DNA from: Minisyncoccia bacterium
Lineage (GTDB): Bacteria; Patescibacteriota; Minisyncoccia; Phycocordibacterales; Phycocordibacteraceae
Direction of reading: 5' to 3'
DNA: 64,000 nucleotides
NCBI GenBank assembly: GCA_041485695.1
Contig: JBGPJZ010000002.1
Coordinates: forward strand, 1,499-65,498
A program made the translations under genes and the position numbers. This document shows positions 40,216-59,126 of this stretch, piece by piece. Within the stretch, counting starts at the first letter, position 1; every line of letters starts with the position of its first letter. The notes beneath the pieces were generated by a model. It did no database searches. It had not been told where the DNA came from and was given only the letters and a program-made list of their open reading frames with translations.

Positions 40216-40217
40216 CC

Positions 40218-40709: not shown

Positions 40710-40722
40710 AGGTGAGATAAAA

Positions 40723-41208: not shown

Positions 41209-41310
41209 GTAGCTATCGTACCAGACCATTCCTGACAACGGCAAGAGAGAGCCTGGGGAGAACAAAAAGACCCCTTTTGGGGTCTTTTTGCTCCAAAAGA
41301 AAGACGGACT

Positions 41311-41778
41311 TTAGATACAAGCGGTGGCAGCCGCAAGCATATACGTACCTTCAGCCTTTGAAGCTCCGGTGCTATCAACGCACCACATACCGCCGGCCTT
41401 AATTGGAGCATCTACTACCCACGCCGATACAGGAGCGGCGGCCGTGTCGTGACAGGTAACCTGCGTCAGAGTACCTACTTGGGAAGGCGGGTTAGCTGAA
41501 GACAGCAAGTTTGTAGTAGCACCTGACGACGAGGCGGCTGCAGTGCGCATGTTTGAGAAACTGGCTGATGCGCAAAGACCGTTATATGTTGTGCCGTTAT
41601 CGTAGAAGATTTCAGCCGCCGCACGCATACTTGCCAACTGGCTCTTGGTCGCGGCGTCAGCACCCTTGTTACGGGCGGTGTTCAAGGAGGCCAAGACGAC
41701 GGAAGAAAGAATCCCAATAATGGCAATGACGACGAGAAGTTCAATAAGCGTGAAGCCGCGTGAGCGAATGTGTTGCAT
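41311..41778 (-). CDS. Type IV major pilin paralogue 1
   Basis: MQHIRSRGFTLIELLVVIAIIGILSSVVLASLNTARNKG; C-terminal Cys pairs. Confidence 0.85.
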   Translation of the reverse strand: MQHIRSRGFTLIELLVVIAIIGILSSVVLASLNTARNKGADAATKSQLASMRAAAEIFYDNGTTYNGLCASASFSNMRTAAASSSGATTNLLSSANPPSQVGTLTQVTCHDTAAAPVSAWVVDAPIKAGGMWCVDSTGASKAEGTYMLAAATACI

Positions 41779-41872
41779 AGTAAATCTATTGGTTAATGGA
41801 CGTAGTATACGCTACCTAGAGGGAGAGCAATACTGGGGTGTGGATATCCCTCTGCCTAGGGGGACAGGCCGC

Positions 41873-43078: not shown

Positions 43079-43080
43079 AG

Positions 43081-44139
43081 CTAGAGATAGCGCTCGAAGG
43101 TCTTGGGGTCGAGCGCGTGAAGCACGGCTTCTTCAGCCGCAACCTCTCCGCGGCGCACGAGCTCTGCAAGCGAGCGGTCCATATCGATCATCCCCTCTTG
43201 CGAGGAGGTCTGGATGACGGCTGTAATCTCGTGCGTCCTGGCCTCGCGGATGAGGTTGGAGACCGCATTGTTGTTGATGAGGAGCTCGTAGGCCGGGATA
43301 AGCCCGCCCGAGATGCGCTGCACCAACCGCTGGGAGAAGATGCCCGCCATGGAGCCAGCGAGCTGGACCCGTACTTGTGCCTGCTGCTCGGCCGGGAACA
43401 TGTCGATGATGCGGTCGATGGTCTGCGCTGCGTTATTGGTGTGCAGGGTGGAGAAGACGAGATGCCCTGTCTCTGCGGCGGTCACCGCCGCAGAGATAGT
43501 CTCATAATCGCGCATCTCACCGACCATGAGCACGTCAACGTCTTCGCGAAATGCCACTTGGAGCGCCGCATGGAAATCTTCCGCATCGATATGCACCTCG
43601 CGCTGGTGAATAAGCGATTTCTTGGGCGTGAAGAGGTACTCAATCGGGTCTTCAATCGTGAGGATGTGCTCCCCGCGACTCTCATTGATACGTTCGATCA
43701 TCGCGGCCAAGGTCGTCGACTTGCCCTGCCCTACCGGCCCCACGACGAGAAAGAACCCCTGCGGTCTGCCAGCAAATGTCTCAAGGATGGGCGGAAGGTT
43801 GAGTTCGGTAAGCGTACGTATCTTAGCCGGGATAAGGCGCATGGCTATCACCGTTACTCCTTGAGCCCTATACCCATTCACTCGAAAGCGTCCATCCTCT
43901 TTGTGGGCATATGAGAAATCGACGCTCTGGTTCTTCTCGAACACTTCCCATCTGCTCGATGGGACGATGTTTTTCAAGATTTGCTCGGTTTGCAAGGGTG
44001 TTAAGACTTCGTGAGTCGAGAGCGGGATGAGCTTCCCCGATACGCGAATGACGGGCGGGGATCCGGGCGAGAGATGGAGATCGGAGCCGTCCTGCGAGAT
44101 GACAGCGTCTAGAAGGTCGGCGAGGCGGATATCGGCCAT
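43081..44139 (-). CDS. pilT: Type IV pilus retraction ATPase PilT
   Basis: Start at MADIRLADLL…; Walker A GPVGQGKST, Asp box and His box (HLVFSTLHTN). The 106-aa Arg/Ser-rich 5' ORF extension is rejected. Confidence 0.85.
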   Translation of the reverse strand: MADIRLADLLDAVISQDGSDLHLSPGSPPVIRVSGKLIPLSTHEVLTPLQTEQILKNIVPSSRWEVFEKNQSVDFSYAHKEDGRFRVNGYRAQGVTVIAMRLIPAKIRTLTELNLPPILETFAGRPQGFFLVVGPVGQGKSTTLAAMIERINESRGEHILTIEDPIEYLFTPKKSLIHQREVHIDAEDFHAALQVAFREDVDVLMVGEMRDYETISAAVTAAETGHLVFSTLHTNNAAQTIDRIIDMFPAEQQAQVRVQLAGSMAGIFSQRLVQRISGGLIPAYELLINNNAVSNLIREARTHEITAVIQTSSQEGMIDMDRSLAELVRRGEVAAEEAVLHALDPKTFERYL

Positions 44140-44140
44140 A

Positions 44141-44527
44141 CTAGGAGCGAGTCTTTTCGATGGTCGCGACCGTCTCTGCAAGCACCTCGGACGGGATTGC
44201 GGACGCTTTAACGATGTAACCAACGGCTCCGAGCGCCTTTGCCTTCTCGAGGTCAGACTCCTGCCCCTGGTTCGAGAGGATGATGATGCGCGCCTTCTCG
44301 GCGAGGTGCTCTTTGCGTATCGTTTCAAGGACTGCGAAGCCATCGATGCCCGGCATGATGAGATCGAGGAGTATGGCATCCGGTTCAGCCTCCTTTTTGC
44401 GAAGTACGGCGAGGAGTTCATCGCCTCCGGAGAACGTGAGCACCTCGTGGCCCGCATTCTTGAATTTCACTGCGTAGAGGTCGAGAAGGAATCGGTCATC
44501 GTCTGTGAGGTAGATGCGATAGGCCAT
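44141..44527 (-). CDS. Single-domain response regulator (CheY-like receiver)
   Basis: 128 aa; acidic pocket DDD, phospho-acceptor LLDLIMPGIDG, conserved Thr/Lys (ILSNQ…GYIVK). Confidence 0.8.
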   Translation of the reverse strand: MAYRIYLTDDDRFLLDLYAVKFKNAGHEVLTFSGGDELLAVLRKKEAEPDAILLDLIMPGIDGFAVLETIRKEHLAEKARIIILSNQGQESDLEKAKALGAVGYIVKASAIPSEVLAETVATIEKTRS

Positions 44528-44549
44528 AGTAAGGGTACGTAAATAGTGG

Positions 44550-46340
44550 TCAATACTCGTCTTCCGGGAAGAGTTCGCCGCCTAAGGTATTCACCTCCTC
44601 AAACGGAATCTCGCCAGCGAGTGCTCTCATGATAGCATCCTCGCGCATGGTGAGCATGCCGTCTTCGCGCGCCGCCGCGTAGACCCGCTCCTCAATCGGT
44701 TCCTTGAGGAGTATCTGCTCGAGCTTCTTGTTCATCCGCAGTATTTCATACACGGCGGTGCGGCCGCGCACCCCAAGAGGACAATCCTCGGTGGGCATCG
44801 CGTGATAAAACTCCTTCAAGGGCGGGAGCCCCCGGCGATACTGTTCAGGCAGATCGGCGAACTCTTTCTCGATAAGCATGCGGATGCTGTCTTTGATGGC
44901 AAACGGCTTCCCGGCTCCGTCGCACAATTTCTTCACGAGACGCTGGCCAATAACCGCAATTAAGGTCGGTGCAATCAGGTAGGGGTCGACTCCCATGTCG
45001 ACCAAGCGCGGGATGGCGCCTGCGGCGGTATTGGTGTGGATAGTTGAGAAGACGAGGTGGCCGGTAAGCGCAGCTTGCACCGCAAGCTGCGCTGTCTCCT
45101 TATCGCGTATCTCACCCACCATGATGACGTCCGGGTCTTGGCGGAGGATGGAACGAAGACCCGAAGCGAAGGTGTATCCTATTTCTGGACGCGTTTGCGA
45201 TTGCGAGACGCCGGGGATCTGGTACTCAACAGGGTCTTCAAGCGAAACGACGTTCATACGCTCGCGGTCGATCTCCGAGAGCATGGCGAACAAGGTCGTC
45301 GACTTGCCCGACCCAGTAGGGCCTGCAATGAGCACGATGCCGTACGCACTTTTAAGCATCTCGCGTATGCTTGCGAGCTTGTCACCCCGAAGCCCTACCG
45401 TCTCTAGGGTTGTGGTCGCCGCGGTCTGATCGAGGATGCGCATCTCTACTTTTTCTCCGTACTCGGTCGGGAAGGTGGAGACACGGAAGTCGATGCGGCG
45501 CCGCTTCTCTACCATCGCCGAAAAGCGGCCGTCTTGCGGTTTTCTCCTCTCGTCAAGCCGGAGCTGCGAAAGGATCTTGATGCGGGCGACGACGGCCTCA
45601 TGCACCTTTGCCGGCAGCTCAAGCGAGGTATGGAGCTCTCCGTCCATGCGGAAACGCACGCGCGTCTTCTCCGGAGTGGGCTCAATATGGATATCGCTCG
45701 CCTTGCCCTCAATGGCGTATCGCAAGATGGTTGAGACGATCTTGGTCACCGGCGCATCCTCCTTGAGCTTCCCCATAGTCGCGCTGCCCGAGAGATCGAG
45801 CGTCGCTTCGCTTTCTGCAACTGCCGCCGCTACGGCTTTTTTCTCCTCCTTCGCATCGGTCGATGAAGCACGGCTCACGGTCTCGAATTCAGAGAGCGCG
45901 GCGCCTACCTCGCCCGAAAGGTTCTTATACGCATCGATGACACGGTCGAAATCCGAAGGCGATATGAGGAAGAGCTTGTAGGGCATCCCGACTTTGGTCG
46001 AGATGAACTGCAAGGCATCCAATGCCTCGATATTATCTGGATCGACGATGCCTACCTCGAGAGCTCCGTTGTCTATCCGAAGCGGAGCGAACTCGTAGTG
46101 GCGTGCCGATTCCTCGGGAATATAGCCAAGCGCATCCTGGTCGACGGGCGGTTCACCGAGTACGCGACCCGGGATGCCGTATTCTTCACCGGCAATCCGG
46201 AGCGCATCGGCGAGCGCAACCCCATGCTCGTTCAAGACGTCTTCGAGCGAACGCTTCTGCTTAGAAATCGCAGCCTCCATGCTCGCACGATCTTTGGCTG
46301 AGATGAGACCCTTTTCTTCGATGAGGGCGAGGAGGTTCAT
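44550..46340 (-). CDS. pilB: Type IV pilus assembly ATPase PilB (GspE family)
   Basis: 596 aa; N-terminal GSPII_N-like region; Walker A GPTGSGKST, Asp/His boxes, tetra-Cys-like CxxC region. Confidence 0.9.
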   Translation of the reverse strand: MNLLALIEEKGLISAKDRASMEAAISKQKRSLEDVLNEHGVALADALRIAGEEYGIPGRVLGEPPVDQDALGYIPEESARHYEFAPLRIDNGALEVGIVDPDNIEALDALQFISTKVGMPYKLFLISPSDFDRVIDAYKNLSGEVGAALSEFETVSRASSTDAKEEKKAVAAAVAESEATLDLSGSATMGKLKEDAPVTKIVSTILRYAIEGKASDIHIEPTPEKTRVRFRMDGELHTSLELPAKVHEAVVARIKILSQLRLDERRKPQDGRFSAMVEKRRRIDFRVSTFPTEYGEKVEMRILDQTAATTTLETVGLRGDKLASIREMLKSAYGIVLIAGPTGSGKSTTLFAMLSEIDRERMNVVSLEDPVEYQIPGVSQSQTRPEIGYTFASGLRSILRQDPDVIMVGEIRDKETAQLAVQAALTGHLVFSTIHTNTAAGAIPRLVDMGVDPYLIAPTLIAVIGQRLVKKLCDGAGKPFAIKDSIRMLIEKEFADLPEQYRRGLPPLKEFYHAMPTEDCPLGVRGRTAVYEILRMNKKLEQILLKEPIEERVYAAAREDGMLTMREDAIMRALAGEIPFEEVNTLGGELFPEDEY

Positions 46341-46358
46341 GACGGTCCTCGATCTGGA

Positions 46359-46640
46359 TTAGTGGCCAATCGGTGCAAACGGGTCTTTGCGCCCCTTATT
46401 CTCAGGAGCAATCGGGGTCGCCGGATTCGTCAGAGACAGGAGGCGGGGATCGGAAAAGATGCTCGTGTCAAAAGAGATGGAGCTTAATTTCCCCGAAAGG
46501 TCAATGAACTGCTGCTCAGCGGGGCTCACAGGTTCCGAAGCGGTCAAGGGCTCGCTCGGAGGCGTACCTGTGAAAAAATACCAATAGCCGCCGATAAGGA
46601 GTAGCACCGCCGCGAGAAAGAAAAGGGGAGTTCTGGTCAT
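46359..46640 (-). CDS. Small membrane-anchored protein in pilus operon (PilP-like position)
   Basis: 93 aa; N-terminal TM then Pro/Ser-rich region. Confidence 0.35.
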   Translation of the reverse strand: MTRTPLFFLAAVLLLIGGYWYFFTGTPPSEPLTASEPVSPAEQQFIDLSGKLSSISFDTSIFSDPRLLSLTNPATPIAPENKGRKDPFAPIGH

Positions 46641-46650
46641 AATGTAGTCA

Positions 46651-47190
46651 TTAGCGGAGCCAATAGAGGCGCACCGTCATGTCGTAGCCGTACACGCCGG
46701 TATCGGAGCCTTTCACAGTGAGGTTCGTGACATCGAGCAGACGCGTGCTGTGTTCGATGCCTGTTATGAAGGTCCGGAATGCTTGATAGCTCCCGGTCGC
46801 TGAAAACGTCATATCGATCGAACCCACCTCGGTGGGTGGGGTTGTGACGTCACCCGCGCCTTGCGTCGGCTGGGGGACGCTTATGCTTGAAATCTGCACG
46901 CCTGAACGCGCGGCGAGAGCGGTGAGGCTAAGAATGGCACTTACGTTGTCGACCGAGCTTGGGAGCAAGGTCTCGAGACGCGCAATGTCTTCCGGCGTTA
47001 TGCGGTTCTTTTCCTCGGCAAGCGTTTTTTGCTTATCCCCGAAACTGGCGGCGGCATTAAGCGCTAACTGCTCGCGCGCGATGGTCGCTTGAATCGTGGT
47101 AACAGGGCCGGAGTAGGTAGGACTTATGTAGATGAAAAAAACTACGAAGGCTAGCACCAGTCCGGCAGCGGGTAGCATCCGGTTCATCAT
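46651..47190 (-). CDS. pilO: Type IV pilus biogenesis protein PilO-like
   Basis: 179 aa, N-terminal TM, coiled-coil, C-terminal alpha/beta domain; gene order after pilN. Confidence 0.6.
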   Translation of the reverse strand: MMNRMLPAAGLVLAFVVFFIYISPTYSGPVTTIQATIAREQLALNAAASFGDKQKTLAEEKNRITPEDIARLETLLPSSVDNVSAILSLTALAARSGVQISSISVPQPTQGAGDVTTPPTEVGSIDMTFSATGSYQAFRTFITGIEHSTRLLDVTNLTVKGSDTGVYGYDMTVRLYWLR

Positions 47191-47840
47191 GGCGTTTGGG
47201 ATGCTGAAGTCGTGGCGGTGGCTCCTGCGGACGGCAGCGACCCGGACGCGTCAGCAGCGCTACTTACCGAAAACGTGGTCAGGCTCTGGTCGAGATTGGC
47301 AGTAAGTGAAAACGAGACTTCCCCGTTCTTACCGATGCCGAGACCTGAAAATACGGCGTTCTTAATCTGGCTCTCTCTGCCTAGTGCGTCTGAAAATACG
47401 GCAAGGGCGTTGAAACTTGCTGCCGAACCTGTCGAGGACAGAACCGCGGTGTGGGCGTCGCTCGTCAAGATAGAAATCGAAGTAAGACGTACGGTCGTTG
47501 GCGCAAGGGACGCGATGAGGTCGAAGGCCTTCGAAAATATGAGGTGCCCGCTCAGAAGCCGCTTGCCCTCAGAGAGGTGGGTGTTAAGGCGGATAAAACT
47601 CTCCACCGTAGACGTATCGATCGACGTCTCGGCTTTTTGAAGATCGGCTTGCTTCGCTGCCTCTACGGTGCCGAGATACCAGTTGTAGGCGAATAGACCG
47701 CCTGCCGCGAGTAGCGCGAGGACAAAAGCCCCGTAGCCCAAGAATGCAAACGCGCCGCCAAAGTCAAAAGCGCTGTTCTTAAATGATAAAGACCCCGAGC
47801 GAGGCACGAACGAGGTCGGCACCGTAGGAGGAACTGCCAT
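47187..47840 (-). CDS. pilN: Type IV pilus biogenesis protein PilN-like
   Basis: N-terminal TM (FAFLGYGAFVLALLAAGGLFAYNWY) then periplasmic domain; overlaps pilO start by 4 nt. Confidence 0.6.
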   Translation of the reverse strand: MAVPPTVPTSFVPRSGSLSFKNSAFDFGGAFAFLGYGAFVLALLAAGGLFAYNWYLGTVEAAKQADLQKAETSIDTSTVESFIRLNTHLSEGKRLLSGHLIFSKAFDLIASLAPTTVRLTSISILTSDAHTAVLSSTGSAASFNALAVFSDALGRESQIKNAVFSGLGIGKNGEVSFSLTANLDQSLTTFSVSSAADASGSLPSAGATATTSASQTP

Positions 47841-47899
47841 AGTCAAAGTATACGGCACACACGCCACGCTTGGGCGGAGTGCGTGTGCATAAAGATGCG

Positions 47900-48982
47900 C
47901 TATCGGTGCTCCTCGAGTTTGCGGAGCGCAATGCCTACGGCGACGGCGAACTCCGGGCCGATTTCTTTCAAGACCGGGCGGATAAATGCGGGCGCCTCGG
48001 TCTTTGCAAAAGGGTCGGCGACCCGCACCTCTACCGAGAATGCCGACTGCGCATAGGTACCGAGGCCCTTGGTGACACCGCCCCCGCCTGTGAGTATCAC
48101 AGTAGCGATTGCCTTCCCGTGCACCGATTCATACTGCGCGAGGGCTCGGCGCGCTTCGCCGAAGATGCGGGAGTATACGAGTTCAATCGAGGAGTGTACG
48201 TCGAGGACGCCGTCCGCGGCTCCTGTGAGACCCTGCTCTTTTTTAAGAGCCTCGGCGGCGGCAATCGAAAGATTATTGCCTACGGCAATCGCCCGCGTCG
48301 CGTCTTGGCCGCCTGAAGTAATCGTATGCGAGAGCGCCACGACGCCGTGTTCGACAACGTAGGCTTTCGTCGTCGATGCGCCGATATCAAGAACCATGAC
48401 TGGCTTCACAGGCTCGTCGACAACCGCACGTATGGTGCTGAATATCTCTATTTCATAAAAACTCGCCGCGAGGTCTGCGCTCCGCACCACGTTTTGGAGC
48501 AGCGAGAGCTCATCGTTATGCACCGCGACGAGGAGGACGCGTACCCTTTCTTTGGCAGTACCCGCTAAGCTATCGTCAGGCACGACAAACCAATCGAGCT
48601 GCACTTCGTTAATGGGCACCGGGATATATTTACGCGCTTCAAGCTCGATAATCGTCTTCTGCTCCTCTTTGTTCTGTCGGCGCGGCAGCTCGATCAAGGT
48701 CAAGAGCGAACGGGCGAACGGGATACCGACCCCGCACTCTTTGGTCGTCACTTTCGCCTCGCGTATGAGGTCGCGCAAGGTCTCGGCGATTTTTTCAGCC
48801 GAGAGATTCGTCGCCTGCCCTATCTCGAGGTTCGCATAGGGGCCGAGCGCGAGCTCGCCATAGGTCTCAAGGACGGCTTTGCCGCCTTGTTTCTTGAGTT
48901 GCACGACTTTCAAGGACGATGAGCCGATGTCAACGCCGAGTACGCTAGTGCTTTTGCCGCCGAAAAGCCCGAAGAACGCCAT
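47900..48982 (-). CDS. pilM: Type IV pilus assembly protein PilM (actin-like ATPase fold)
   Basis: 360 aa; LGVDIGSSSLKVV phosphate-1 motif and VLDIGASTTK phosphate-2 motif. Confidence 0.9.
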   Translation of the reverse strand: MAFFGLFGGKSTSVLGVDIGSSSLKVVQLKKQGGKAVLETYGELALGPYANLEIGQATNLSAEKIAETLRDLIREAKVTTKECGVGIPFARSLLTLIELPRRQNKEEQKTIIELEARKYIPVPINEVQLDWFVVPDDSLAGTAKERVRVLLVAVHNDELSLLQNVVRSADLAASFYEIEIFSTIRAVVDEPVKPVMVLDIGASTTKAYVVEHGVVALSHTITSGGQDATRAIAVGNNLSIAAAEALKKEQGLTGAADGVLDVHSSIELVYSRIFGEARRALAQYESVHGKAIATVILTGGGGVTKGLGTYAQSAFSVEVRVADPFAKTEAPAFIRPVLKEIGPEFAVAVGIALRKLEEHR

Positions 48983-49700: not shown

Positions 49701-50144
49701 ATGAGGAAGGTTCTTTTCGTCTGCTTTGGCAACACCTGCCGGAGCCCCATGGAGGAGGCGATTTTCCGTGAGATGCTTGAAAAGCTCGGCATCGAAGATC
49801 TCAGCGTCGAAAGCGCTGGCGTCAATCAAGCTTCTGCCGGCCAACCGATTGCTCCCTTCTCGGCGCAAGAGCTCCGGAATCGCGGCATCAACCACGATCG
49901 TCACACGAGCCGGTATGTCGGCGACATTGGCCCACTTGACGACTTCATCCGCATCATCTGCGTTGGAGACAAGGAGGCAGCGACTCTCACCGCCCTCTTC
50001 CCTGATGTCGTGAATCGAACATCAGTCATGCCGATCGACAACCCGTGGGAGAAGGGTGAAGAAGCCTATCGCCTCTGCGCGATTCAAATCGAGGAGCTCA
50101 TGGGCGCACTCGTCGACAGTGTCGTCGCCGAAATCAGGCGCTAA
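49701..50144 (+). CDS. Low-molecular-weight protein-tyrosine phosphatase / ArsC-like
   Basis: P-loop CFGNTCRSPMEEA (C-x5-R-S) at the N-terminus and a DP-like motif region. Confidence 0.8.
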   Translation: MRKVLFVCFGNTCRSPMEEAIFREMLEKLGIEDLSVESAGVNQASAGQPIAPFSAQELRNRGINHDRHTSRYVGDIGPLDDFIRIICVGDKEAATLTALFPDVVNRTSVMPIDNPWEKGEEAYRLCAIQIEELMGALVDSVVAEIRR

Positions 50145-50169: not shown

Positions 50170-50206
50170 GGACCTGTAGCTCACGCTACGGGTCCGCTCT
50201 TTTTTA
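50170..50206. terminator. Bidirectional intrinsic terminator
   Basis: GGACC-t-GTAGC-tcac-GCTAC-g-GGTCC compound hairpin followed by GCTCTTTTTTATAAT; it overlaps the stop codon of the minus-strand gene. Confidence 0.5.
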
Positions 50207-51722
50207 TAATCGTTACAATTCCCTTTTCGGCGTCTATCTCAATCTCATCGCCGTCTTTCAAGACTTTAGTCGCGATTTTTGTTGCGATGACACAGGGCTT
50301 ATTAAATTCACGCGACATGATGGCAGCGTGAGAAAGGAGCCCTCCCTCGTCGGTCACTATGGCTGATGAGCGTTTCATCGCTGGGACGTAATCAGGGTTC
50401 GTCATCGGACACACAAGTATTTCACCCTCAAGGAGCGTATGCGCCTGGGTTGGGTCGAGCGCCACTCTCACTTTCCCTCGTACAAATCCTTTACAGGCGA
50501 CCTGGCCGCGTAGTTCAGTAATTGTGGTGTCAACTTTATTGAGCTCCGTATCAATCCAGGTGCTTATCGCGTGCCCCTCCTCTCCTACCGCCAAGCGTTG
50601 TTCGCCACCGATAATAGCCATCGCAAATCCTTTCCTTCGTTCCTCTATCACTTTCGCCAAGACGGTTTTATCTGTCATGAGAGCTTCAAAGATTTCTCTC
50701 GAGAGAAGAAATTTCATGTCGACAAACGCGACGCCGATTCTTTTTGCAACTAACTGCATAAAGTCGAGATAGCGCGATGATGAAATATACGCCTCTTCAA
50801 TCCCCGCAGTTAACCCATAACCGAGTTCTCGAGCATTTTCAATATGAAGAACCAGTTGCGAATCCGTTTTAATCTCTTCAATGATTCTTTGCGCGATGTG
50901 CTCATTCTTCTCTGCGGCCTTCTTTTGTATCTCGAGGTTCTCTTTGAAATTCTCTTTTTGAGCCTTGTGTACCCTCTCGACGAGTTGGGCATATGACATC
51001 GGGAGGAGTGGGCTTAAAATAAATGTTGTGAGCCAATCATACTTTTCTAAGTACTCCTTTGCTTCTGCCTTAAACCGGGGGTCATTTGCAAAGTCATCAT
51101 TTTTATCAGCAAGCGAGACAAGCTTGCACATGTCCTCTTGTTCAAGCTGAAAGGCTGTTTTCTTTATAGGGAACACCAGCGTAAGTAAAGCTTCATCAAT
51201 AGCAACAATCGCCTCTATTTCTTTTCGATGCTTCTCGAGTCCCTCTTTAACTCGGTCAGTTAAGATGTTCTCCTTAGAGACGTACCAAGGGTAGTAGAAC
51301 CAGGGCACGAGTTTGATAAAACTCGCATCCATCTTTTGCCAATATGATGCAAGCTCTTCATTGGTGATGCCCTCATTTTGTATTGCTCTGTTCACTATGT
51401 CAGCTTCTGCATTAAATGTTCTGGGGAACTCTACGGTAGATTTTAGAAAGTGCTGCAGAGCCTCTGGATTATCTAGCTTCTCCCTCAATCCTTTAAATAA
51501 GATTTGTTTTTGTGTTGGGATATCGTACCCCTTGCTTGAATCGGTGAAAAGATAGTCGAGCGTATCTGTGGTACCCGTTATCCATGGGATGAGGTATTGC
51601 GAAAGGGCGCGGCAAAAGAAATCGCAGAGGGAGATTGGCTGTTCTCCGCGCTGTTGAAACTCATACTCCCATTGTGTTAGGTCGATATCCTCCCGTTTGA
51701 GCGTTTTGACTTCGTAATCCAT
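50181..51722 (-). CDS. Protein with unknown ~380-aa N-terminal domain plus C-terminal PEP-utilising-enzyme mobile (phosphohistidine) domain
   Basis: C-terminus …CPMTNPDYVPAMKRSSAIVTDEGGLLSHAAIMSREFNKPCVIAT… has the GGxxxHAAIxxRE phosphohistidine swivel-domain signature. Its start overlaps the stop of the upstream gene. Confidence 0.7.
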   Translation of the reverse strand: MDYEVKTLKREDIDLTQWEYEFQQRGEQPISLCDFFCRALSQYLIPWITGTTDTLDYLFTDSSKGYDIPTQKQILFKGLREKLDNPEALQHFLKSTVEFPRTFNAEADIVNRAIQNEGITNEELASYWQKMDASFIKLVPWFYYPWYVSKENILTDRVKEGLEKHRKEIEAIVAIDEALLTLVFPIKKTAFQLEQEDMCKLVSLADKNDDFANDPRFKAEAKEYLEKYDWLTTFILSPLLPMSYAQLVERVHKAQKENFKENLEIQKKAAEKNEHIAQRIIEEIKTDSQLVLHIENARELGYGLTAGIEEAYISSSRYLDFMQLVAKRIGVAFVDMKFLLSREIFEALMTDKTVLAKVIEERRKGFAMAIIGGEQRLAVGEEGHAISTWIDTELNKVDTTITELRGQVACKGFVRGKVRVALDPTQAHTLLEGEILVCPMTNPDYVPAMKRSSAIVTDEGGLLSHAAIMSREFNKPCVIATKIATKVLKDGDEIEIDAEKGIVTIIKKSGPVA

Positions 51723-51723
51723 G

Positions 51724-54700
51724 TTACTTAAGAATCGTCACGATTCCCGTGTTGGCGTCCATTTCGATTTCATCGCCATCTTTTATTACCTCGCTTGCGT
51801 TACCAGTGCCGACGATGCAGGGAATATTTAACTCGCGGCTCACGATTGCTGCATGCGAGAGCATGCCGCCCTGGTCGGTGATGATGCCTCCTGCTTTTTT
51901 GCACGCTGGCATTAATTCGGGCGAGGTCGTCTCTGCAATCAAGATATCGCCCTTCTGCATAGCATCCATCAGGTGATGCAGTGTATCAAAGTTGTCGTAG
52001 CCCGAAACGATGATTCGCGCCCTGCCCCGCGCAATACCCGGGTGAGCTGTGGTGCCTGTTACCGTCTCGCCATGGCTAGCGTTGCCTACGAAGCTCTCAA
52101 TCGCGTGCCGAGCCGAGGGGCCTGTTTTACGCACCGTGCTACCTTCGACACCTATGATGTAAAAAGCATTCTCGCGATGCGCGATCTCCTCTTCGGGCAC
52201 TTTCGCGGCGTCAAAAAGGTTGAGGATCTCTTGGCGCGAATATTGCTGCAGGGTGCGCTCGGATATGTTGAAACGCTCCCCAAGACTCTTTAACAGTTTC
52301 GGCAAAACAGCGTCAGCGCCAAAAAAGATTGAATTCAAGAACTCTCGACCCTCGTTCTTCAGTTCGCCCATGAGCGAGAGTCTCTCTTCAATCCCTTTGT
52401 CTTTCGTCTCTTTTGATTTTTTGTACGCGCCGTCCATATAAAAGAACTCCGTCTTCGAATAGTAGAAAAAGAGCCGGGCGATATCGTTGAGCAAACGCTC
52501 TACTTCCTCTTTTGAGAGCTTGCTGTAGGCGAGGCTTTCCGCAATCATTCGTATCTCTTTCATGTAGGCGCGGAATGCGTTTTGAAAGTGGGTGAAGTCC
52601 GCAGCATCTGAAATGAGTCTGGCTCCTTCGGCAAGAGTTTTCTGTACAGTCGTATGCGAAAGATAGCTGGTGTAAAAATCATCAATAACCGTGGTCAGGG
52701 CACCGAGCGTTTGGTAATGCTCCATCCAAATGTCGTCGATAAAGTAGCGCAGGCCCTGCACGCGAAAGAGCCGTTGCCACTCATCTTTGCTTCCAAATGG
52801 ATGACTCCGTTTGAGAATTGCTACTGTCCCCTTCTTTGTATCAACTTCGATCTCATCTCCATTATTGAGGATTTTCGTAGCGAAGCCCGTCTCGACTATA
52901 CAGGGTATCCCCATTTCGCGGGCGGTGATAGCGGCATGCGAAAGCATGCCGCCGGCGTCAGTAACAACTGCAGCCGCTTTCTTAAACGCTTCTATAAGCT
53001 CTGGGTCTGTACTATCTGAGACCAAAATTTCTCCCTTTTGCATTTCGTGCATCTGCCCTTGCAAGATTTCCCGGTTGCTATAATCACGAATAATTTTACG
53101 CACCTTCCCGCGGACAGTCGGCCCTGTATGCGCTGTCTTACCGGTAAGCACTTCTATAATTGAGTCCCCAACATTCTCAACTTTGGCGATAAACCTCTGG
53201 GCGGCATCCCCTACAAGAAACTCCACACCACCTTTCGTCTTATGGAGTACCCAGGCCTGCGTGCGCGCCTCGAGCGCTTGCTCGCTAACATGGGTACCAC
53301 CAAACAACGCGAGTACTTCGGCTCCTCGATACCAGTTCACAGTTTCGGTGGTAAGCGAGCGTTGTTTGGCGACTTTTGCTACTAACGTTTGCAGGTATGA
53401 ATCCGCGCCGAAAAAGATTTTCTCCATGCGCTCGCGTATCTCGTTTTTAAAACTCTCAACCAGAGCGACGTTCTCTTTCGCCGCCGGGTCGGTAGCGCTT
53501 CTCTCGAACACTTTATCCCAATACATATAGTCGAAGTAGGCATACTGCCCGCAAATCTTACTGATGAGCGTAAATACATGCTCCGCATCTTTGCGCGCAA
53601 TCTCCTTCTTTTGCCTTAGCATCTTGATTTCTCCCAGCCCTTGCTCAACGAGCGCCGTAAGCGACGCGATGACCTCCTTAGTATCGGCAGGAGTGCGTCT
53701 AAGCCCGATGTCTCGAGCTTCTTCTGTGGTTTTCTTCTCCCAGTAAGAGAGCTCTTTGCCGCCATGGCCTAACACGGCTGATTCAACAGGCATGTAACCC
53801 TCATTGACCACATCCTCGAAAAGAAATGGTGTCCCTTGAGCGCTGAATGCAAAAACAAACTCCGGCTCGGCTCTGGCATTTAAAATGCGTACGATGCCGT
53901 TATCAGCATCGACTTCAACTAAGTCCCCATCTTTTAAGACTTCAGTCGCGATTTTGGTGCCTACGATACACGGCTTCTTCATTTCGCGTGAGACGATTGC
54001 TGCGTGGCAAGTTAAACCGCCTTCGTCGGTAATAAACGCGGCTGCTTTTTGCATATAGGGCACGTACTCTGGGTTTGTCATCGGAGCAACAAGGACATCG
54101 CCCACGCCGATTTTGGCAATCTCTTTTTTATTCATCACCAAGCGCACCGTACCAGCAACCTTCCCCGGGTACGCTGTCTGACCTTTAATCTCTTTTGCGC
54201 CGTCTGCATCAATCTGCTCGAGCTTCAGGTTCTTTTCTTTAAGAATCTGCTCAAGCTTTGAAAGCGGCCAGATATCACCCTTAATCAAGAAGCACCCCTC
54301 TTGATACCTCTGCTCAAGTGTTGCGATAAGCTCTTTGTCTGCATGTTTTGCAAGCTTTACGGCCTCCTCTGGAGTGATGACGTACGAGAACTTTGCATAC
54401 TCGGGGAACTCTGTCTCCCAGAATTCGACAAAATTTGAGCTCATCTTGTCTGTGTACTGCTCGGTCTCCTCACGAATCTTCAAGATACTTTCTCTAAAAT
54501 CAGGCTGCAAGTCGGGATTATTCGGAAGTTCGAAAAAGACTGTGTTCATCGCAGACCAAAAATCAACGATGTGGCGGTAGTATGAGTACATCTCGTCAAC
54601 GCTCTTAAGTTTCTGCGAGCCTGACAGATACTGTGCTGCTTTAGCCCATGACTTCTCCATCTTTTCTACAACGCGAAGCCGAAGGTTCGCATCATCGTGC

Positions 54701-56541
54701 AATTTTTGAATTGAGATCTTTGAAAGTCTCCCCAGTTCTTTTTGTGAATACCAAACGTCGCCCTGCTTCTCCTTGCCTCGTTCGATGAAAAGGTTTGCAT
54801 TAATTTCTTCACCCAAAAACTCCTTTATCCCTTCCCTATCGCACAGATCCCACAACGAAAAATAGAAGAGAGCCTTCTCTCTCGAATAGACTTTTGAAAG
54901 TGTCGTTTGCCCAAGTTGCCAATTCTTTTCTTGAAGTTCTTTTGGTAAGTTTTTGAGGAGCCCGAACGAATCGTTCGTGAGGTACCAGCCTTTCAGGCGT
55001 TCTTGGAGCTCGGCGGTTGGAGGAAAGTTACCACTCGTCGCTTCTTCAGGCGTGAGTACGTACGCGTATTCAGCCATGTGCGGATAGAGGTGTTTGACTG
55101 TCTTCAGATAGAGTTCGTCCGACTTGTCAGAGTATTCTTGCGTTTCTGCCCGTAGAGCCAGAGCTTCATCACGAATTTTTTGTGGCAACGCCGAGATATC
55201 TGGGGTAATAAACATAACCACCATAGGTGCCCACCATTCGAAAAAGTGTTGGGTGTAATCGCGAAACTCCTCGCGAGTGAGCGGTTCTTTTTTCGTAAGA
55301 TAATGGAGCATCACCTTCCAATGGACGTTGAAAGTTTTGGTGACTTGAGGGAACCATTGTGGGTCTGACGCTTTCTTAACTACATTTTCTTCATAGATAT
55401 CGAACTCGTATTGCGAGTAGTAAACGTAAAGCAAATCTCGAGTATCCGGCCGTATAAAAAGTGCCTCCTCGGTATTGCGTCCTGCCCATGCCGCCTCCGT
55501 TTTACAGTTCCCATCACGCCAAGCTACTGCTTCGTATAAAGAAAGCTCCCTCGTAAAATACTTCTCGAGCACTGCAGGTATCACCGCCTTAGATTTCTGC
55601 GAGAGGGTGGTGATCGGGCGGCTTTGGACAATATAAAACGTGCTGCCTTCAAACGCCCACTCGATATCGCAGGGGAAGCCGTAGTGATTCTCGATTTTAA
55701 GGATGAGTTCGGAGAGTTCGAGAACTTGTTTTTCGGTGAGTACTTGCGACGAGGCTCGCGGCTCGGGGATATCCTTCCACTCATTCCCCCCACCACTTGC
55801 TCGATACAAGGCACGGGTTTGCGAACTTACGTTGGTATCAATGATCCGCCGCGGAGCTTTCTCTACCACGTAACTATCGGGCGTTACTTGCCCCGAAACT
55901 ATTGCCTCGCCAAGCCCAAACCCTGCTTCAATGATGAGTTGATTATAATCTTCAGTGACAGGGTGCACCGAAAAGGCGATGCCCGACACTTCGCTCGCGA
56001 CCATTTTTTGTACGACGACCGCTACTGAAATCTTTTGTGTGTGGAGATTCTTTTCAAACCGGTAAAAGATTGCGCGGGGGGTAAAAAGCGATGTCCAGCA
56101 TCGCTGCACATTCGTAAGCAAGGTCTCTTTCGTCGTATTCAAATAACTATCAAGCTGCCCAGCCCACGCCGCCGAAGCAGAGTCTTCAGCAGTTGCGCTT
56201 GAGCGCACTGCCACATATTCGGCGCCCAATTCTTTAAAATTCTTTTCAATATCTCGTGCAATATCGTCGGGCATTTTCGCCCCAAGAATCATCTGCTGAA
56301 TCTTTTGCGAAGCTTGCTCAACCGTATGCATCTCTTCGCGATTCACGGTGTGAAGCGCCGTATCTATTTCAGCCAGCAAATCTGTCTCTTCAAGGAATCG
56401 GTCGAAGCTGCTCGAAAGTACGACAAACCCGGGCGGTACCTGTATCCCAGCTTGGGTCATTTCTCCTAAGGACGCACCTTTCCCTCCCGCTATCGCGGCA
56501 TCGTTTTTACTTATCTCCCCAAATGGTTTTATGAGGGTCAT
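51724..56541 (-). CDS. Giant (1605 aa) PPDK/PEP-synthase-like protein: N-terminal ATP-grasp (PPDK_N-type) domain followed by three repeats of [unknown domain + PEP-utilising phosphohistidine domain]
   Basis: N-terminus GGKGASLGEM…VAVRSSATAEDS…EAIVSG…WAFEG…IVQSRPIT matches PEP-synthase/PPDK/rifampin-phosphotransferase nucleotide-binding domains. Three swivel His domains: [48 protein letters not shown] and [24 protein letters not shown]. Confidence 0.75.
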   Translation of the reverse strand: MTLIKPFGEISKNDAAIAGGKGASLGEMTQAGIQVPPGFVVLSSSFDRFLEETDLLAEIDTALHTVNREEMHTVEQASQKIQQMILGAKMPDDIARDIEKNFKELGAEYVAVRSSATAEDSASAAWAGQLDSYLNTTKETLLTNVQRCWTSLFTPRAIFYRFEKNLHTQKISVAVVVQKMVASEVSGIAFSVHPVTEDYNQLIIEAGFGLGEAIVSGQVTPDSYVVEKAPRRIIDTNVSSQTRALYRASGGGNEWKDIPEPRASSQVLTEKQVLELSELILKIENHYGFPCDIEWAFEGSTFYIVQSRPITTLSQKSKAVIPAVLEKYFTRELSLYEAVAWRDGNCKTEAAWAGRNTEEALFIRPDTRDLLYVYYSQYEFDIYEENVVKKASDPQWFPQVTKTFNVHWKVMLHYLTKKEPLTREEFRDYTQHFFEWWAPMVVMFITPDISALPQKIRDEALALRAETQEYSDKSDELYLKTVKHLYPHMAEYAYVLTPEEATSGNFPPTAELQERLKGWYLTNDSFGLLKNLPKELQEKNWQLGQTTLSKVYSREKALFYFSLWDLCDREGIKEFLGEEINANLFIERGKEKQGDVWYSQKELGRLSKISIQKLHDDANLRLRVVEKMEKSWAKAAQYLSGSQKLKSVDEMYSYYRHIVDFWSAMNTVFFELPNNPDLQPDFRESILKIREETEQYTDKMSSNFVEFWETEFPEYAKFSYVITPEEAVKLAKHADKELIATLEQRYQEGCFLIKGDIWPLSKLEQILKEKNLKLEQIDADGAKEIKGQTAYPGKVAGTVRLVMNKKEIAKIGVGDVLVAPMTNPEYVPYMQKAAAFITDEGGLTCHAAIVSREMKKPCIVGTKIATEVLKDGDLVEVDADNGIVRILNARAEPEFVFAFSAQGTPFLFEDVVNEGYMPVESAVLGHGGKELSYWEKKTTEEARDIGLRRTPADTKEVIASLTALVEQGLGEIKMLRQKKEIARKDAEHVFTLISKICGQYAYFDYMYWDKVFERSATDPAAKENVALVESFKNEIRERMEKIFFGADSYLQTLVAKVAKQRSLTTETVNWYRGAEVLALFGGTHVSEQALEARTQAWVLHKTKGGVEFLVGDAAQRFIAKVENVGDSIIEVLTGKTAHTGPTVRGKVRKIIRDYSNREILQGQMHEMQKGEILVSDSTDPELIEAFKKAAAVVTDAGGMLSHAAITAREMGIPCIVETGFATKILNNGDEIEVDTKKGTVAILKRSHPFGSKDEWQRLFRVQGLRYFIDDIWMEHYQTLGALTTVIDDFYTSYLSHTTVQKTLAEGARLISDAADFTHFQNAFRAYMKEIRMIAESLAYSKLSKEEVERLLNDIARLFFYYSKTEFFYMDGAYKKSKETKDKGIEERLSLMGELKNEGREFLNSIFFGADAVLPKLLKSLGERFNISERTLQQYSRQEILNLFDAAKVPEEEIAHRENAFYIIGVEGSTVRKTGPSARHAIESFVGNASHGETVTGTTAHPGIARGRARIIVSGYDNFDTLHHLMDAMQKGDILIAETTSPELMPACKKAGGIITDQGGMLSHAAIVSRELNIPCIVGTGNASEVIKDGDEIEMDANTGIVTILK

Positions 56542-56565
56542 GTCTCGCTAATATAGCGCTTTTCA

Positions 56566-58254
56566 TTAGAGAATTCGAACGGTGCCGTGGTTGGCGCGGA
56601 CTTCAACTAGGTCGCCAGTTTTGATGACTTGGGTCGCATTTTTAGTGCCAATCACACAGGGCTTACCAAGCTCGCGAGAGACGATGGCGGCATGGCATGT
56701 AATGCCGCCTTCATTTGTGACAATCGCCGCCGCTTTCTTCATAAGCGGTACGAACTCTGGTCGCGTCATGCCGGTGACGAGAATCTCCCCTTCTTTGAAT
56801 TGATCGAATTCTTTTTGAGAGAGGATTATACGCGCGATACCTTTCGCAAAACCCTGCGAAGCAGTCTGCCCCGTTAAGGTCTTGCTCACTCCGCCAGCGA
56901 GAATCGCTTCAAAACCGGTTCGGATAGACACAGCCTCTTTACCCTCATACATTTTGTAATGACCGTCCTCCACGGCCACCATCACCCCTTCGGTCGCACG
57001 ACGCTCAAGTACTGAAGGCGGGATGAGCCCTTTCTGCACATTCTCGACTTCGTCGAAACTTAGGTACTGCAAGTGGTTGCGCGGGATACCGGTGTGGAGT
57101 GCGATTGATTGGAGCACGGCCTCGAGGATATGAAAGCCCATGAGGTTCACCTTTTTACGATGCTCACGCCAGTATGTAAGGCGCTGAAAAAAGAAGAGCG
57201 GGTTCGTCGTGAGCTTGTGGGCATGTAATACCGCATTTACCGCACGCGTCTTCTTCACCGCATAGGTATCGAGTTGATCAAACTCTTCTGCAAAGAGTTT
57301 CTTGTCACGAGTGTAGTGCAGGATTTCCTCCTTCACATCAGCCACGCTTATGTGATTGATGTACGCGTAATTAGATCGGTAGTAGTCGAACGCGGCGCGA
57401 TACTGGTCAATCTTAGCCGCGTTTTTATGGACGAATTCATCCACGCTCTTCTCGGCAATTGTGGTACGACTCGACATAAGCTTCTTGATAAGAGAGAGGA
57501 GCGCGTATTTACGCTCGTCGGCAAAAGTTGGCTCGGTCGGAGTGGTGAGGATTTGAATTTCTTCTTTAGTGAACGAGTGTTGCTTTGCGATCTCTTCAAT
57601 CTTTTCGTGATCTACGCCGATATCGAACGCATCGATAAAAAGACTCGTGCTCCAAAACGCGTCGTAGAGCGCACGAACTTTTTCGAAAAGCGCGTTAAAT
57701 TTTGCAGCGTCAAGTGAGGCTGGCGTTATTTGCTGTGTCTCGAGATAGAGCTGTTCTATGTCAGAAGCATGGCCAAGATATTTGTGATAGAGATTTTCGT
57801 ATGCGGGAGAATTTGCGTACTCTGCATAAAACGCAGTTGCGAGCGAGCGCAGCGACTCGGTATTCCAATAGATCTCCCCATAATCGCCCTTATAGAAGGC
57901 GTTTAAGATGCCGTAACCATATTCGGCTCCCTGATGGAGAAGTCGATAGGTCCCAGCACTCAAGGACCACGGCCAGGCGGTATAGGGGACGATATTCCCC
58001 TCCTGCTTATAGACCTGCTTGGGGTACACAATGGACGCTTCTTTTTTGGGCTCTGGAATGTCGAGCTCCACGAGCTCGGAAAGGGGTACGCGGTAGGCAT
58101 GAGAGATGCTTTCGAGGGTGCTAAGACGTATGCCATCGGCTTCCCCCCGTAGGAGCGCCCCTATGGTATTGCGGTTGAGCCCGGTATCCGCAGCCATTTC
58201 TAGCCCGGTTTTACGTAGCTTTTTAGCCAATTCAGCTATTTTGAGTTTTGCCAT
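56566..58254 (-). CDS. XRE-type HTH fused to unknown domain and C-terminal PEP-utilising phosphohistidine domain
   Basis: N-terminus [37 protein letters not shown] is a Cro/C1-type HTH; C-terminus [24 protein letters not shown] is a swivel His domain. Start placed at MAKLK (58254), downstream of the predicted promoter, rather than the 58284 track start. Confidence 0.65.
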
Positions 58255-58269
58255 ATGCCTAGTTAGATA

Positions 58270-58303
58270 GGCAATATATAGCATATTGCCACTTTTTATG
58301 CAA
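58270..58303 (-). promoter_or_regulatory. Putative sigma70-like promoter with overlapping palindromic operator for the phosphohistidine-array operon
   Basis: Minus-strand TTGCAT (58298-58303), 17-bp spacer, TATATA (58275-58280). The perfect inverted repeat GGCAATAT-atagc-ATATTGCC (58270-58290) overlaps the -10 element. Confidence 0.35.
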
Positions 58304-58318
58304 GTAAAATAGATGTGT

Positions 58319-58334
58319 GACTGTTTTAACAGTC
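58319..58334. promoter_or_regulatory. Second perfect palindrome GACTGTT-TT-AACAGTC in the divergent control region
   Basis: 7-bp perfect inverted repeat with 2-nt spacer, between the divergently transcribed SixA-like and HTH genes. Confidence 0.35.
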
Positions 58335-58441
58335 TTTTGATACTGAAAAGCTATTGACTTTAAAGTCCGTTATGCTAAGCTATATCCAGGTTAAAAGTTC
58401 GCCTAAAAATCTCTCAACCGCCAAACCCATAGGGGGACCAA

Positions 58442-59026
58442 ATGGCAGATACGAGAATAACGATTCTTCGTCACGGAAACGCCGTGCCGCCTACGGATGA
58501 TTCACATCAAGCCGATATGGCTCGAGCACTCTCCGGCAAAGGCCAGGGGCAAGCCGAGTTGCGTAGGAAGATTCTTGGCAACCCGAAGTTCGACCTCATC
58601 CTTTCGTCGCCAGCGGCCAGGGCGGTCCAAACTGCCCTCATCGTCAGCGATCAGCCCGAAAGTACGGTGCAAAAGATGCATCAGTTGTGTTGGACAGAAG
58701 GATCCGACTTCGCGAAAGCGATTGACGCGATGTTCCGTGAGCTCGGCTACAAGCCGCTCGCGGATTATCGGAAACATCCGCAAGGCCATCTGCTCGACGA
58801 GCAGGCCGGCGAGACGTGGACGTTGTTCCAAGCGTTTCCGTTCAGCGGAAAGTCCGCCCTCATCACCGGACACGCCGTCATGAGCAATGCTCTCGCCTGC
58901 CAAGCCATCGGCGGATACGATCCTTCCGAATGGCGCTACCTGTCGGAAACGTCATTCGGCGAGTGCGAGGGCGTGACTCTCGAGTTCCGTACTGGCGAGT
59001 TCGTCGGGATGGACGTGCACGTGTAA
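58442..59026 (+). CDS. Histidine-phosphatase superfamily protein, SixA-like (putative phosphohistidine phosphatase)
   Basis: ITILRHGNAV (catalytic RHG), …DLILSSPAARAVQTA… matches the SixA/PGAM branch 1 pattern; 194 aa. Confidence 0.6.
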   Translation: MADTRITILRHGNAVPPTDDSHQADMARALSGKGQGQAELRRKILGNPKFDLILSSPAARAVQTALIVSDQPESTVQKMHQLCWTEGSDFAKAIDAMFRELGYKPLADYRKHPQGHLLDEQAGETWTLFQAFPFSGKSALITGHAVMSNALACQAIGGYDPSEWRYLSETSFGECEGVTLEFRTGEFVGMDVHV

Positions 59027-59082
59027 GTCGGCAACGACACAGATTAAAAGAGGGCTGCCCTAACCGGTGGCCCTTTTGTTTT

Positions 59083-59126
59083 ACAAAATAAAAAGAACGC
59101 CCCTGCCGGCAAGACCGGCAGGGGCG
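59083..59126 (-). terminator. Intrinsic terminator for purQ
   Basis: CGCCCCTGCCGG-caaga-CCGGCAGGGGCG (12-bp perfect stem) followed on the minus strand by TTCTTTTTATTTTG. Confidence 0.75.

Follow-up and report, generated by a model that had tools for sequence, protein, structure and literature searches.

We describe here a small gene of the histidine phosphatase superfamily, and the gene array from which it is divergently transcribed, in a 64,000-nucleotide stretch of a Minisyncoccia contig (JBGPJZ010000002.1, assembly GCA_041485695.1; the whole stretch is referred to below as the window). The array encodes phospho-histidine (phospho-His) swivel domains together with an ATP-grasp domain of the PPDK_N type, and we will argue that the phosphatase, which represents a distinct and hitherto undescribed branch-1 subfamily, is very likely the dedicated phosphate-removing partner of such arrays. 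The genes and signals concerned are the following:

58442..59026, + strand: histidine-phosphatase-superfamily (branch 1) gene, 194 aa, of an array-linked subfamily without a name
58431..58437, + strand: Shine-Dalgarno-like AGGGGGA, 4 nt 5' of the ATG at 58442, read directly from the sequence
59048..59083, + strand: intrinsic terminator ending the phosphatase gene, made up of a 12-bp stem and, after it, the U-run UUUUGUUUU
56566..58254, - strand: Xre-type helix-turn-helix (HTH; HTH_26), RPH-like middle domain and phospho-His swivel (PEP-utilizers), 562 aa; heads the array operon, candidate regulator
51724..56541, - strand: PPDK_N ATP-grasp domain (E=5.9e-98) and three modules of middle domain plus swivel, 1605 aa
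50181..51722, - strand: middle domain plus swivel protein, 513 aa; last array gene

The initial annotation had recognised a histidine-phosphatase-superfamily gene with an RHG motif, divergent from the array, and this is borne out. Residues 6-168 of the protein match Pfam His_Phos_1 (PF00300; E=5.9e-12) with 46.1 bits, the cut-off being 21.7, and the complete catalytic set is retained in R10, H11, R60 and H144, which align with their counterparts in CobC and PhoE; the protein is predicted to be cytoplasmic and, by its residues, catalytically intact. We prefer the start at 58442, giving 194 aa with the N-terminus MADTRITILRHGN, because AGGGGGA precedes this ATG and the homologues align from residue 4 onward. 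The JGI gene call is the complete 194-aa protein; the NCBI call has 169 aa, starts at M26 and drops window positions 58442-58516, the catalytic RHG included. The terminator hairpin (59048-59077) has a folding energy of -18.8 kcal/mol (z=-3.4), equalled in only 1 of 200 shuffles, and since the gene has this intrinsic terminator of its own it would form a monocistronic unit. Next to it are purQ/purL and the swivel array, and no genes of cobalamin, serine or glycolytic metabolism.

The five phospho-His carrier domains counted in the initial annotation are all present, and the motif GGxx[S/C]HAAI is kept in each of them: one in the HTH protein (56566-58254), three in the 1605-aa protein (51724-56541) and one in the last gene product (50181-51722). 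The structure 5fbs of rifampin phosphotransferase (RPH) aligns at profile positions 315-558, a stretch that takes in the swivel domain and a portion of the rifampin-binding domain. With 648 bits against 598, the 1605-aa protein scores above the NCBIfam cut-off for phosphoenolpyruvate (PEP) synthase, but only through the summed scores of PPDK_N and three swivel repeats; it is not a true PEP synthase because the PEP/pyruvate TIM barrel is absent, PEP-utilizers_C having no match in the array proteins. Automatic annotation is thus misleading on both sides of the spacer, shortening the phosphatase past its catalytic His and inviting the name PEP synthase for the largest array protein. By its domain content the array appears to be a split dikinase system of the RPH/PEP-synthase type. 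HpeHI, PpsAB, CreHI and AcvAB are documented examples of split dikinases, in which the ATP-grasp component stands apart (PMC12167813). The array gave no PADLOC match to anti-phage defence systems. As to the first array gene, automatic callers place its start at 58284 (572 aa); we favour the ATG at 58254, and with it the 187-bp spacer given in the initial annotation, because the consensus start of the HTH family is MIKIKL and its members have 555-568 aa.

The swivel motif also bears on what the divergent phosphatase might act upon. In two of the five motifs (GGITCH and GGLTCH) a Thr lies two residues ahead of the swivel His, and such a Thr has a regulatory role (PMC12167813). The enzyme could, then, be a phospho-Thr/Ser phosphatase acting on this residue (GGxT[C/S]H), in the manner of the PSRP/PDRP control of PEP synthase and PPDK. 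The other three modules have Leu at that position, however, and no regulatory kinase is evident, so that we consider this role very improbable.

Despite its RHG motif, the phosphatase cannot be placed with SixA, as the initial annotation had proposed. Its score against the sixA model (TIGR00249) is 34.6 bits, far below the cut-off of 74.5, and covers no more of the 154 model positions than 2-70; among 40 family members even the highest-scoring one (E=2.8e-11) stays below the cut-off. The scores are no better elsewhere: 29.9 bits against 162.9 for cobC (TIGR03162), with no cob genes in the context, 25 against 350 for PspA, 26.9 against 225 for the archaeal dPGM model and 13.8 against 320 for dPGM PRK01112. 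In short, the phosphatase passes none of the NCBIfam equivalog models. A family profile compared with the Protein Data Bank (PDB) aligns over profile positions 4-158 with CobC (63 bits), PhoE (57) and PspA (51), whereas SixA-type chains give 35-47 bits with a best stretch of positions 4-86 only, E. coli SixA itself scoring 35 bits over the N-terminal half only. The sub-threshold score, the N-terminal-only alignment, a cap insert and a length of 194 aa against about 155-170 together exclude SixA membership.

The insert lies between the second Arg and the second His. The spacing from R60 to H144 is 84 residues and includes a three-helix segment at about residues 79-137, with helices at 89-101, 106-110 and 116-130 in the AlphaFold2 (AF2) model. 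Predicted from the alignment, that model (mean predicted local distance difference test, pLDDT, 96.8) has the alpha/beta/alpha fold of the superfamily, with a branch-1 core, the three-helix insert and a C-terminal hairpin bearing the motif GECEG; prediction from the single sequence (pLDDT 37) was not usable. Of the 318 PDB matches that Foldseek returned (E<=1e-3), the 50 listed are without exception branch-1 enzymes. The SixA-like structure 2rfl superposes on the minimal core with a root-mean-square deviation (rmsd) of 3.6 A and a template modelling (TM) score of 0.75 normalised to the target; for capped branch-1 structures the TM score is about 0.6 and the rmsd about 6 A, the cap itself not superposing. 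With CobC, PhoE and PspA (PDB 6nru, 1h2e and 4ij5) the phosphatase shares a length of about 200 aa and an insert where their cap sits, but it differs from them in missing their equivalog cut-offs widely, in its non-superposing cap, in lacking a conserved catalytic Glu and in having no cobalamin or serine context. With SixA (about 160 aa) it shares the superfamily, the RHG...R...H core, the superposing minimal core and the lack of a conserved canonical Glu; unlike SixA, it has 194 aa, the extra three-helix insert and the C-terminal GECEG hairpin. It would thus appear to consist of a SixA-sized core with a family-specific cap, and to be the orthologue of no named enzyme.

An exhaustive HMMER search yielded 299 relatives, of which 92 reach E<=1e-10; they mostly have 185-205 aa and can be aligned end to end. 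Other searches found much less: a word-indexed homologue search returned only the phosphatase itself, or three proteins when the family profile was used, and genome contigs scanned for a pattern of the phosphatase gave no match. In an alignment of 40 sequences R10, G34 and H144 are invariant and H11, R28, R60 and E174 nearly so; the motifs particular to the family are LFxxLGYxPLxxY (residues 97-109) and GECEG (173-177). We define this subfamily, A2, by a length of about 185-205 aa and the motifs RH[GAC], SSPxxR, LFxxLGYxPLxxY, GH[AG] and GECEG, to all of which the window protein conforms. The only domain fusions seen in the family are tandem His_Phos duplications, and these reveal no substrate.

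The canonical proton donor of the superfamily, a Glu or Asp after strand 3, is not kept: the window protein has Q81 there, and across the family E, Q, S, D, A or L are found. Superfamily catalysis proceeds through a phospho-His enzyme intermediate, and some members are mutases. With the acid that promotes hydrolysis not conserved, one might therefore imagine that His11, the active-site His of the superfamily (PMC7948535), takes the phosphate of a swivel domain and hands it on, in a mutase- or relay-like transfer. We think this improbable, as there is no evident acceptor and small branch-1 proteins of similar size are mostly hydrolases.

The company that the gene keeps also bears on its role. 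A profile scan of species-representative genomes for the HTH-swivel protein retrieved 78 loci from bacteria of the candidate phyla radiation (CPR) and from DPANN archaea (numbered L001 onward where they must be told apart); with the window counted, the swivel genes number 2-14 in 60 of the 79 loci and are as a rule accompanied by a single PPDK_N gene. A His_Phos open reading frame (ORF) occurs in 16 independent loci besides the window, and in 15 of these 17 no more than 500 nt separate it from an array gene; among 78 independent array loci, 15 have such an ORF at this distance. Pfam His_Phos_1 is reported for all but one of the ORFs checked, in a few cases slightly under the gathering score. 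Up to 1.5 kb from array genes there are 0.063 His_Phos ORFs per kb, and farther away 0.004 per kb, a 16-fold difference (binomial p=9e-7). The reverse test, which examined the genomic context of eight members of the phosphatase family, gave the same picture: seven adjoin PPDK_N/PEP-utilizer swivel genes, five of them divergent from the PPDK_N gene (P0124, P0125, P0127, P0128 and P0200) and two convergent with a swivel gene (P0134 and P0154). The eighth, P0171 (L089, 10001-10582), has no array within 20 kb, and RPG and RPS replace its RHG and second Arg; it lies near an mraZ/division-cell-wall cluster and is probably a pseudo-enzyme that has departed from the array context.

The A2-type gene and the array occupy opposite strands in each of the 13 independent loci, in one or the other of two strand arrangements, and opposite-strand adjacency to PPDK_N or swivel genes is found in the window, L081-L088, L091, L015, L057, L065 and L069. 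Relatives are annotated as Patescibacteria/Parcubacteria, which points to a CPR origin of the window. A His_Phos gene is present in both of the closest HTH relatives, L091 and L092, and L091 (61% identity, the closest) has the same divergent arrangement of phosphatase and HTH gene. Longer His_Phos relatives of about 300 aa are co-directional inside the arrays of L028, L060, L073, L080 and L092. The suggestion in the initial annotation that phosphatase and array form a functional unit is therefore strongly supported by the seven linked members of eight, the 16-fold density and the layout of L091, and we regard a functional coupling between the two as highly probable.

The spacer between the divergent genes contains several elements that could serve such a coupling:

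58270..58290, no strand: palindrome 1, GGCAATAT-N5-ATATTGCC, enclosing the array-operon -10; candidate operator
58319..58334, no strand: palindrome 2, GACTGTT-TT-AACAGTC, unique in the window and not kept in L091
58256..58273, no strand: palindrome 3, TGCCTA-N6-TAGGCA, abutting the HTH-gene start and containing CTAGGCAT
58356..58367, no strand: GACTTTAAAGTC, a perfect palindrome of 12 bp that overlaps the phosphatase promoter at its -35 and spacer
58275..58303, - strand: promoter-like element of the array operon, with -35 TTGCAT (58303-58298), 17 nt and TATATA (58280-58275; with TGC, 58283-58275)
58354..58381, + strand: probable phosphatase promoter, TTGACT (58354-58359), N16 and TGCTAAGCT, that is, the extended -10 TGC-TAAGCT (58373-58381), as judged from the sequence

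The first two palindromes had been reported in the initial annotation and are indeed there; TGCCTA-N6-TAGGCA and GACTTTAAAGTC are additional to them. In 5000 dinucleotide-preserving shuffles of the 187-bp spacer the probability of one inverted repeat with arms of at least 8 was 0.041, and that of two distinct repeats with arms of at least 7 was 0.009, so that the spacer palindromes exceed chance modestly. Across the whole window GACT-N0-8-AGTC shows no enrichment (8 occurrences against 6.5 expected), although two of the eight are in this spacer; the pattern was chosen post hoc and carries little weight. A terminator-like score of the palindromes on the + strand was dismissed, since there is no upstream + strand gene and they are located before the phosphatase promoter. 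Rfam gave no match at the gathering score, none in the intergenic region, and the 5' untranslated region of the phosphatase gene is without structure (z=+0.8).

The promoter-like element TTGCAT-17-TATATA proposed earlier for the array is present and overlaps palindrome 1, its -10 ending 20 nt from the ATG. It fits the consensus at only 3/6 plus 4/6 positions and was not called by a promoter scan, but comparison with L091 speaks in its favour: the corresponding region there has TTGCAT-N16-TATACT with the same 20 nt from -10 to ATG, and also a GCAATA-T-TATTGC palindrome with the GGCAATAT half-site. Directly 5' of the HTH-gene ATG both loci have AACTAGGCAT. The overall frequency of CTAGGCAT is only 0.012 per kb, yet the window, L091 and L016 all have it upstream of their HTH gene, L016 as part of a palindrome with 9-bp arms. 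On the phosphatase side the sole call of the scan, TTGATA-18-TAAAGT (58337-58366), was rejected (1 found against 1.3 expected by chance); we prefer TTGACT-N16-TGCTAAGCT because it recurs in related loci, TTGACW-N16/17-(TGC)TAnnnT lying upstream of the phosphatase in the window, L081-L088 and L091. Transcription is predicted to start near 58268 for the array (- strand) and near 58388 for the phosphatase (+ strand).

Palindromes overlap the phosphatase -35 in the window, L009 and L030, and GACTTTAAAGTC resembles the GACT..AGTC / TTGACTAGTC elements of L009, L030 and L013. Among more distant HTH-swivel genes, GACTAGTC-type palindromes occur within 130 nt upstream of the gene start in 6 of 10 loci, and ACTAGT and GACTAG are found there 9 times against 0.2-0.5 expected and 12 times against 0.3-0.5, respectively. 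Palindromes of the GACTAGTC / TGACTAGTCA kind are seen upstream of the HTH-swivel genes of L006, L007, L009, L013, L016 and L030, often overlapping a -35 (TTGACTAGTC) or a -10, and may represent an operator of the family. An operator function of the spacer palindromes, with autoregulation by the HTH protein as first suggested, is thus plausible: the GGCAATAT half-site, TTGCAT, the 20-nt spacing and CTAGGCAT are common to the window and L091, although palindrome 2 is not.

An unrelated housekeeping phosphatase (CobC-, PhoE- or PSP-like) could have become a chance neighbour of the array, with the palindromes arising by chance in an AT-rich spacer, and it is true that no equivalog model is passed and that the palindrome probabilities (0.04 and 0.009) are modest. 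But the linkage is kept in at least 13 independent loci in two strand arrangements, genes of cobalamin, serine or glycolytic metabolism do not adjoin, and cis-elements are common to the window and L091. Chance adjacency is largely refuted by the co-occurrence tests, and a housekeeping role seems most unlikely.

From what, then, would a dedicated phosphatase remove phosphate? We propose that one ATP-grasp (PPDK_N) module charges the His of many paralogous modules of middle domain plus swivel, and that the phosphatase, as a separately transcribed partner of these split dikinase arrays in uncultured Patescibacteria, would strip off the phosphate that the system installs. Its favoured target would be the swivel phospho-His, including that of the general PPDK_N-linked module and that of the HTH-fused regulator; we assign this target, and the reading as a whole, a probability of about 0.4. 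The enzyme would reset or drain the relay, as SixA does on NPr downstream of EI-Ntr. The HTH-swivel protein would sit on the palindromes at both back-to-back promoters (we infer both its binding and the direction of regulation), and the expression of array and phosphatase would be tied to the phosphorylation or substrate state of the system.

Precedents exist within the superfamily, since both SixA and PGAM5 are phospho-His phosphatases (PMC7948535). SixA acts on NPr of the nitrogen phosphotransferase system (PTS), and the possible phospho-His target here would likewise lie downstream of a swivel enzyme of the PEP-utilizer type. To our knowledge sixA is not clustered with the genes of its pathway, whereas the window gene is tightly clustered. 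PGAM5, the mammalian phosphatase of NDPK-B, offers a branch-1 precedent with a cap (cited in PMC7948535), and its structure 3mxo matches our model at an rmsd of about 5 A; it differs from the window phosphatase in being eukaryotic and mitochondrial, in having other oligomerisation motifs and in scoring only 29-30 bits, N-terminally. The choice of the swivel phospho-His is favoured by the presence of a single phosphatase for 2-14 paralogues that share the swivel domain only, by the usual adjacency of its gene to the shared charging gene, on the opposite strand in the 13 independent loci and in a transcription unit of its own, and by the combination of an absent conserved Glu, as in SixA, with a highly conserved non-catalytic cap motif. 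The predicted core, moreover, superposes best on a SixA-like structure.

Several observations weigh against this target. Hydrolysis of a catalytic phospho-His intermediate is wasted ATP, and the near-invariant E174 might act as a general acid. The cap insert is positioned as in small-molecule phosphatases, and the best full-length profile matches are CobC, PhoE and PspA. Phosphorylated small-molecule products would be expected because the array proteins share part of the rifampin-binding domain of RPH. Other hydrolases recur in the arrays as well, namely HAD (10 loci), HD (10 loci) and low-molecular-weight protein tyrosine phosphatase (LMW-PTP; two loci, the window and L057). Finally, known split dikinase clusters encode product phosphatases, such as AcvF (bioRxiv 10.1101/2022.04.28.489975).

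All but the first two of these observations suit a different and quite possible role, in which the enzyme hydrolyses phosphorylated small molecules released by the dikinase modules, either as the next step of a pathway or in reversal of the reaction. The array proteins are homologous to the substrate-binding plus swivel part of RPH and resemble components of the HpeH type (PMC12167813), the HAD phosphatase AcvF performs just this task for the split dikinase AcvAB (bioRxiv 10.1101/2022.04.28.489975), and the lack of the canonical Glu would also suit good leaving groups, for example aryl phosphates. Yet up to 14 divergent paralogues would then depend on a single conserved enzyme; no given paralogue is ever co-transcribed with the A2-type gene, which in most cases adjoins, on the opposite strand, the PPDK_N gene that they share; and the cap motif is strongly conserved rather than variable. 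The comparison with the AcvAB plus AcvF clusters is instructive in both directions. They share with the window a separate ATP-grasp component, swivel/substrate-binding parts with the GGxx[S/C]HAAI His and a phosphatase within the cluster. However, each known cluster contains a single dikinase pair, and its HAD phosphatase is co-transcribed in an aromatic-catabolism operon, whereas the window has five swivel paralogues (up to 14 elsewhere), an HTH fusion and a His_Phos gene on the opposite strand, and the CPR and DPANN hosts have no such catabolic genes nearby.

To return to the swivel phospho-His as target, its consequence for the system as a whole would be considerable. A dedicated swivel phospho-His phosphatase, a PPDK_N charger, swivel paralogues and an HTH-swivel factor would together make up a reversible, ATP-driven His-phosphorylation relay of CPR bacteria, with analogues in DPANN archaea; we put this forward as an attractive but rather doubtful extension.

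The arrays of other genomes have features of their own. They consist of tandem paralogues of about 480-500 aa, each with a divergent N-terminal domain and a conserved swivel, in both CPR and DPANN (for example L057, L073, L045, L080, L028 and L030). In L057 (Taylorbacteria) 14 array genes occupy essentially all of the 22 kb retrieved; if CPR genomes are of about 1 Mb, as we estimate, such an array would be a sizeable share of the genome. Embedded in it, both on the opposite strand, are an LMW-PTP gene (16390-16875, - strand) and an A2-type His_Phos gene. A short swivel protein of about 360 aa nearly always follows the PPDK_N gene or is fused to it (L084 1535-3570, L088 1150-4607, L007 13394-15423 and L080 12971-14960); it could serve as a general charging module, separate from the paralogues of about 480 aa, and such a module would suggest a His-to-His relay. 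Accessory genes in or beside the arrays include those for a highly conserved 200-aa HD protein (10 loci), a HAD hydrolase (10) and TrmB-type regulators (14), and a block of PTA_PTB and hexapeptide-transferase genes is found at 12-15 array loci, mostly in DPANN; examples of accessory genes are L013 14672-15271, L030 14054-14656, L020 3741-4376, L007 12526-13353 and L019 8908-9909.

A second phosphatase gene lies at the other end of the window array, which is therefore flanked on both sides by phosphatase genes of the opposite strand:

49701..50144, + strand: low-molecular-weight PTP-type phosphatase (PF01451, E=1.7e-19), separated by 36 nt from the last array gene, with which it converges

This LMW-PTP may be a second phosphatase of the unit. 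The G+C content is 48.7% in the array (window 50181-58254) and 53.8% in the flanking DNA, and G+C at third codon positions (GC3) is 0.68-0.69 in the His_Phos and LMW-PTP genes, similar to that of the pilus genes, which hints at differing evolutionary histories for the array and its flanking phosphatases. The pilus genes belong to a type IV cluster upstream of the array (39433-48982; pseudopilins, PilC, PilT, PilB, PilM/N/O-like and prepilin peptidase-like), assigned from ORF translations alone. In two loci a glutaredoxin gene is found directly 3' of the phosphatase (L084 4935-5126 and L088 5496-5735); redox control of the phosphatase family is possible, the Cys of GECEG being largely conserved.

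We know of no genomic tie between any of SixA, PHPT1, PGAM5 and LHPP and its pathway. These are the four phospho-histidine phosphatases with proposed in-vivo targets (PMC7948535). In the literature searched we found no description of PEP-utilizer or swivel arrays in CPR or DPANN, nor of this phosphatase subfamily; a resistome survey merely counts 'rph' matches in CPR genomes (PMC8651080). The array system, with its 2-14 RPH-like swivel paralogues and one ATP-grasp module, is thus large and apparently undescribed. The window phosphatase is small and easily expressed, and its candidate substrates are encoded next to it, which makes the question of whether it is an eraser of swivel phospho-His directly testable. 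If it is, a relay provided with its own eraser would join two-component systems and the PTS as a third kind of network for His-phosphate signalling or group transfer.

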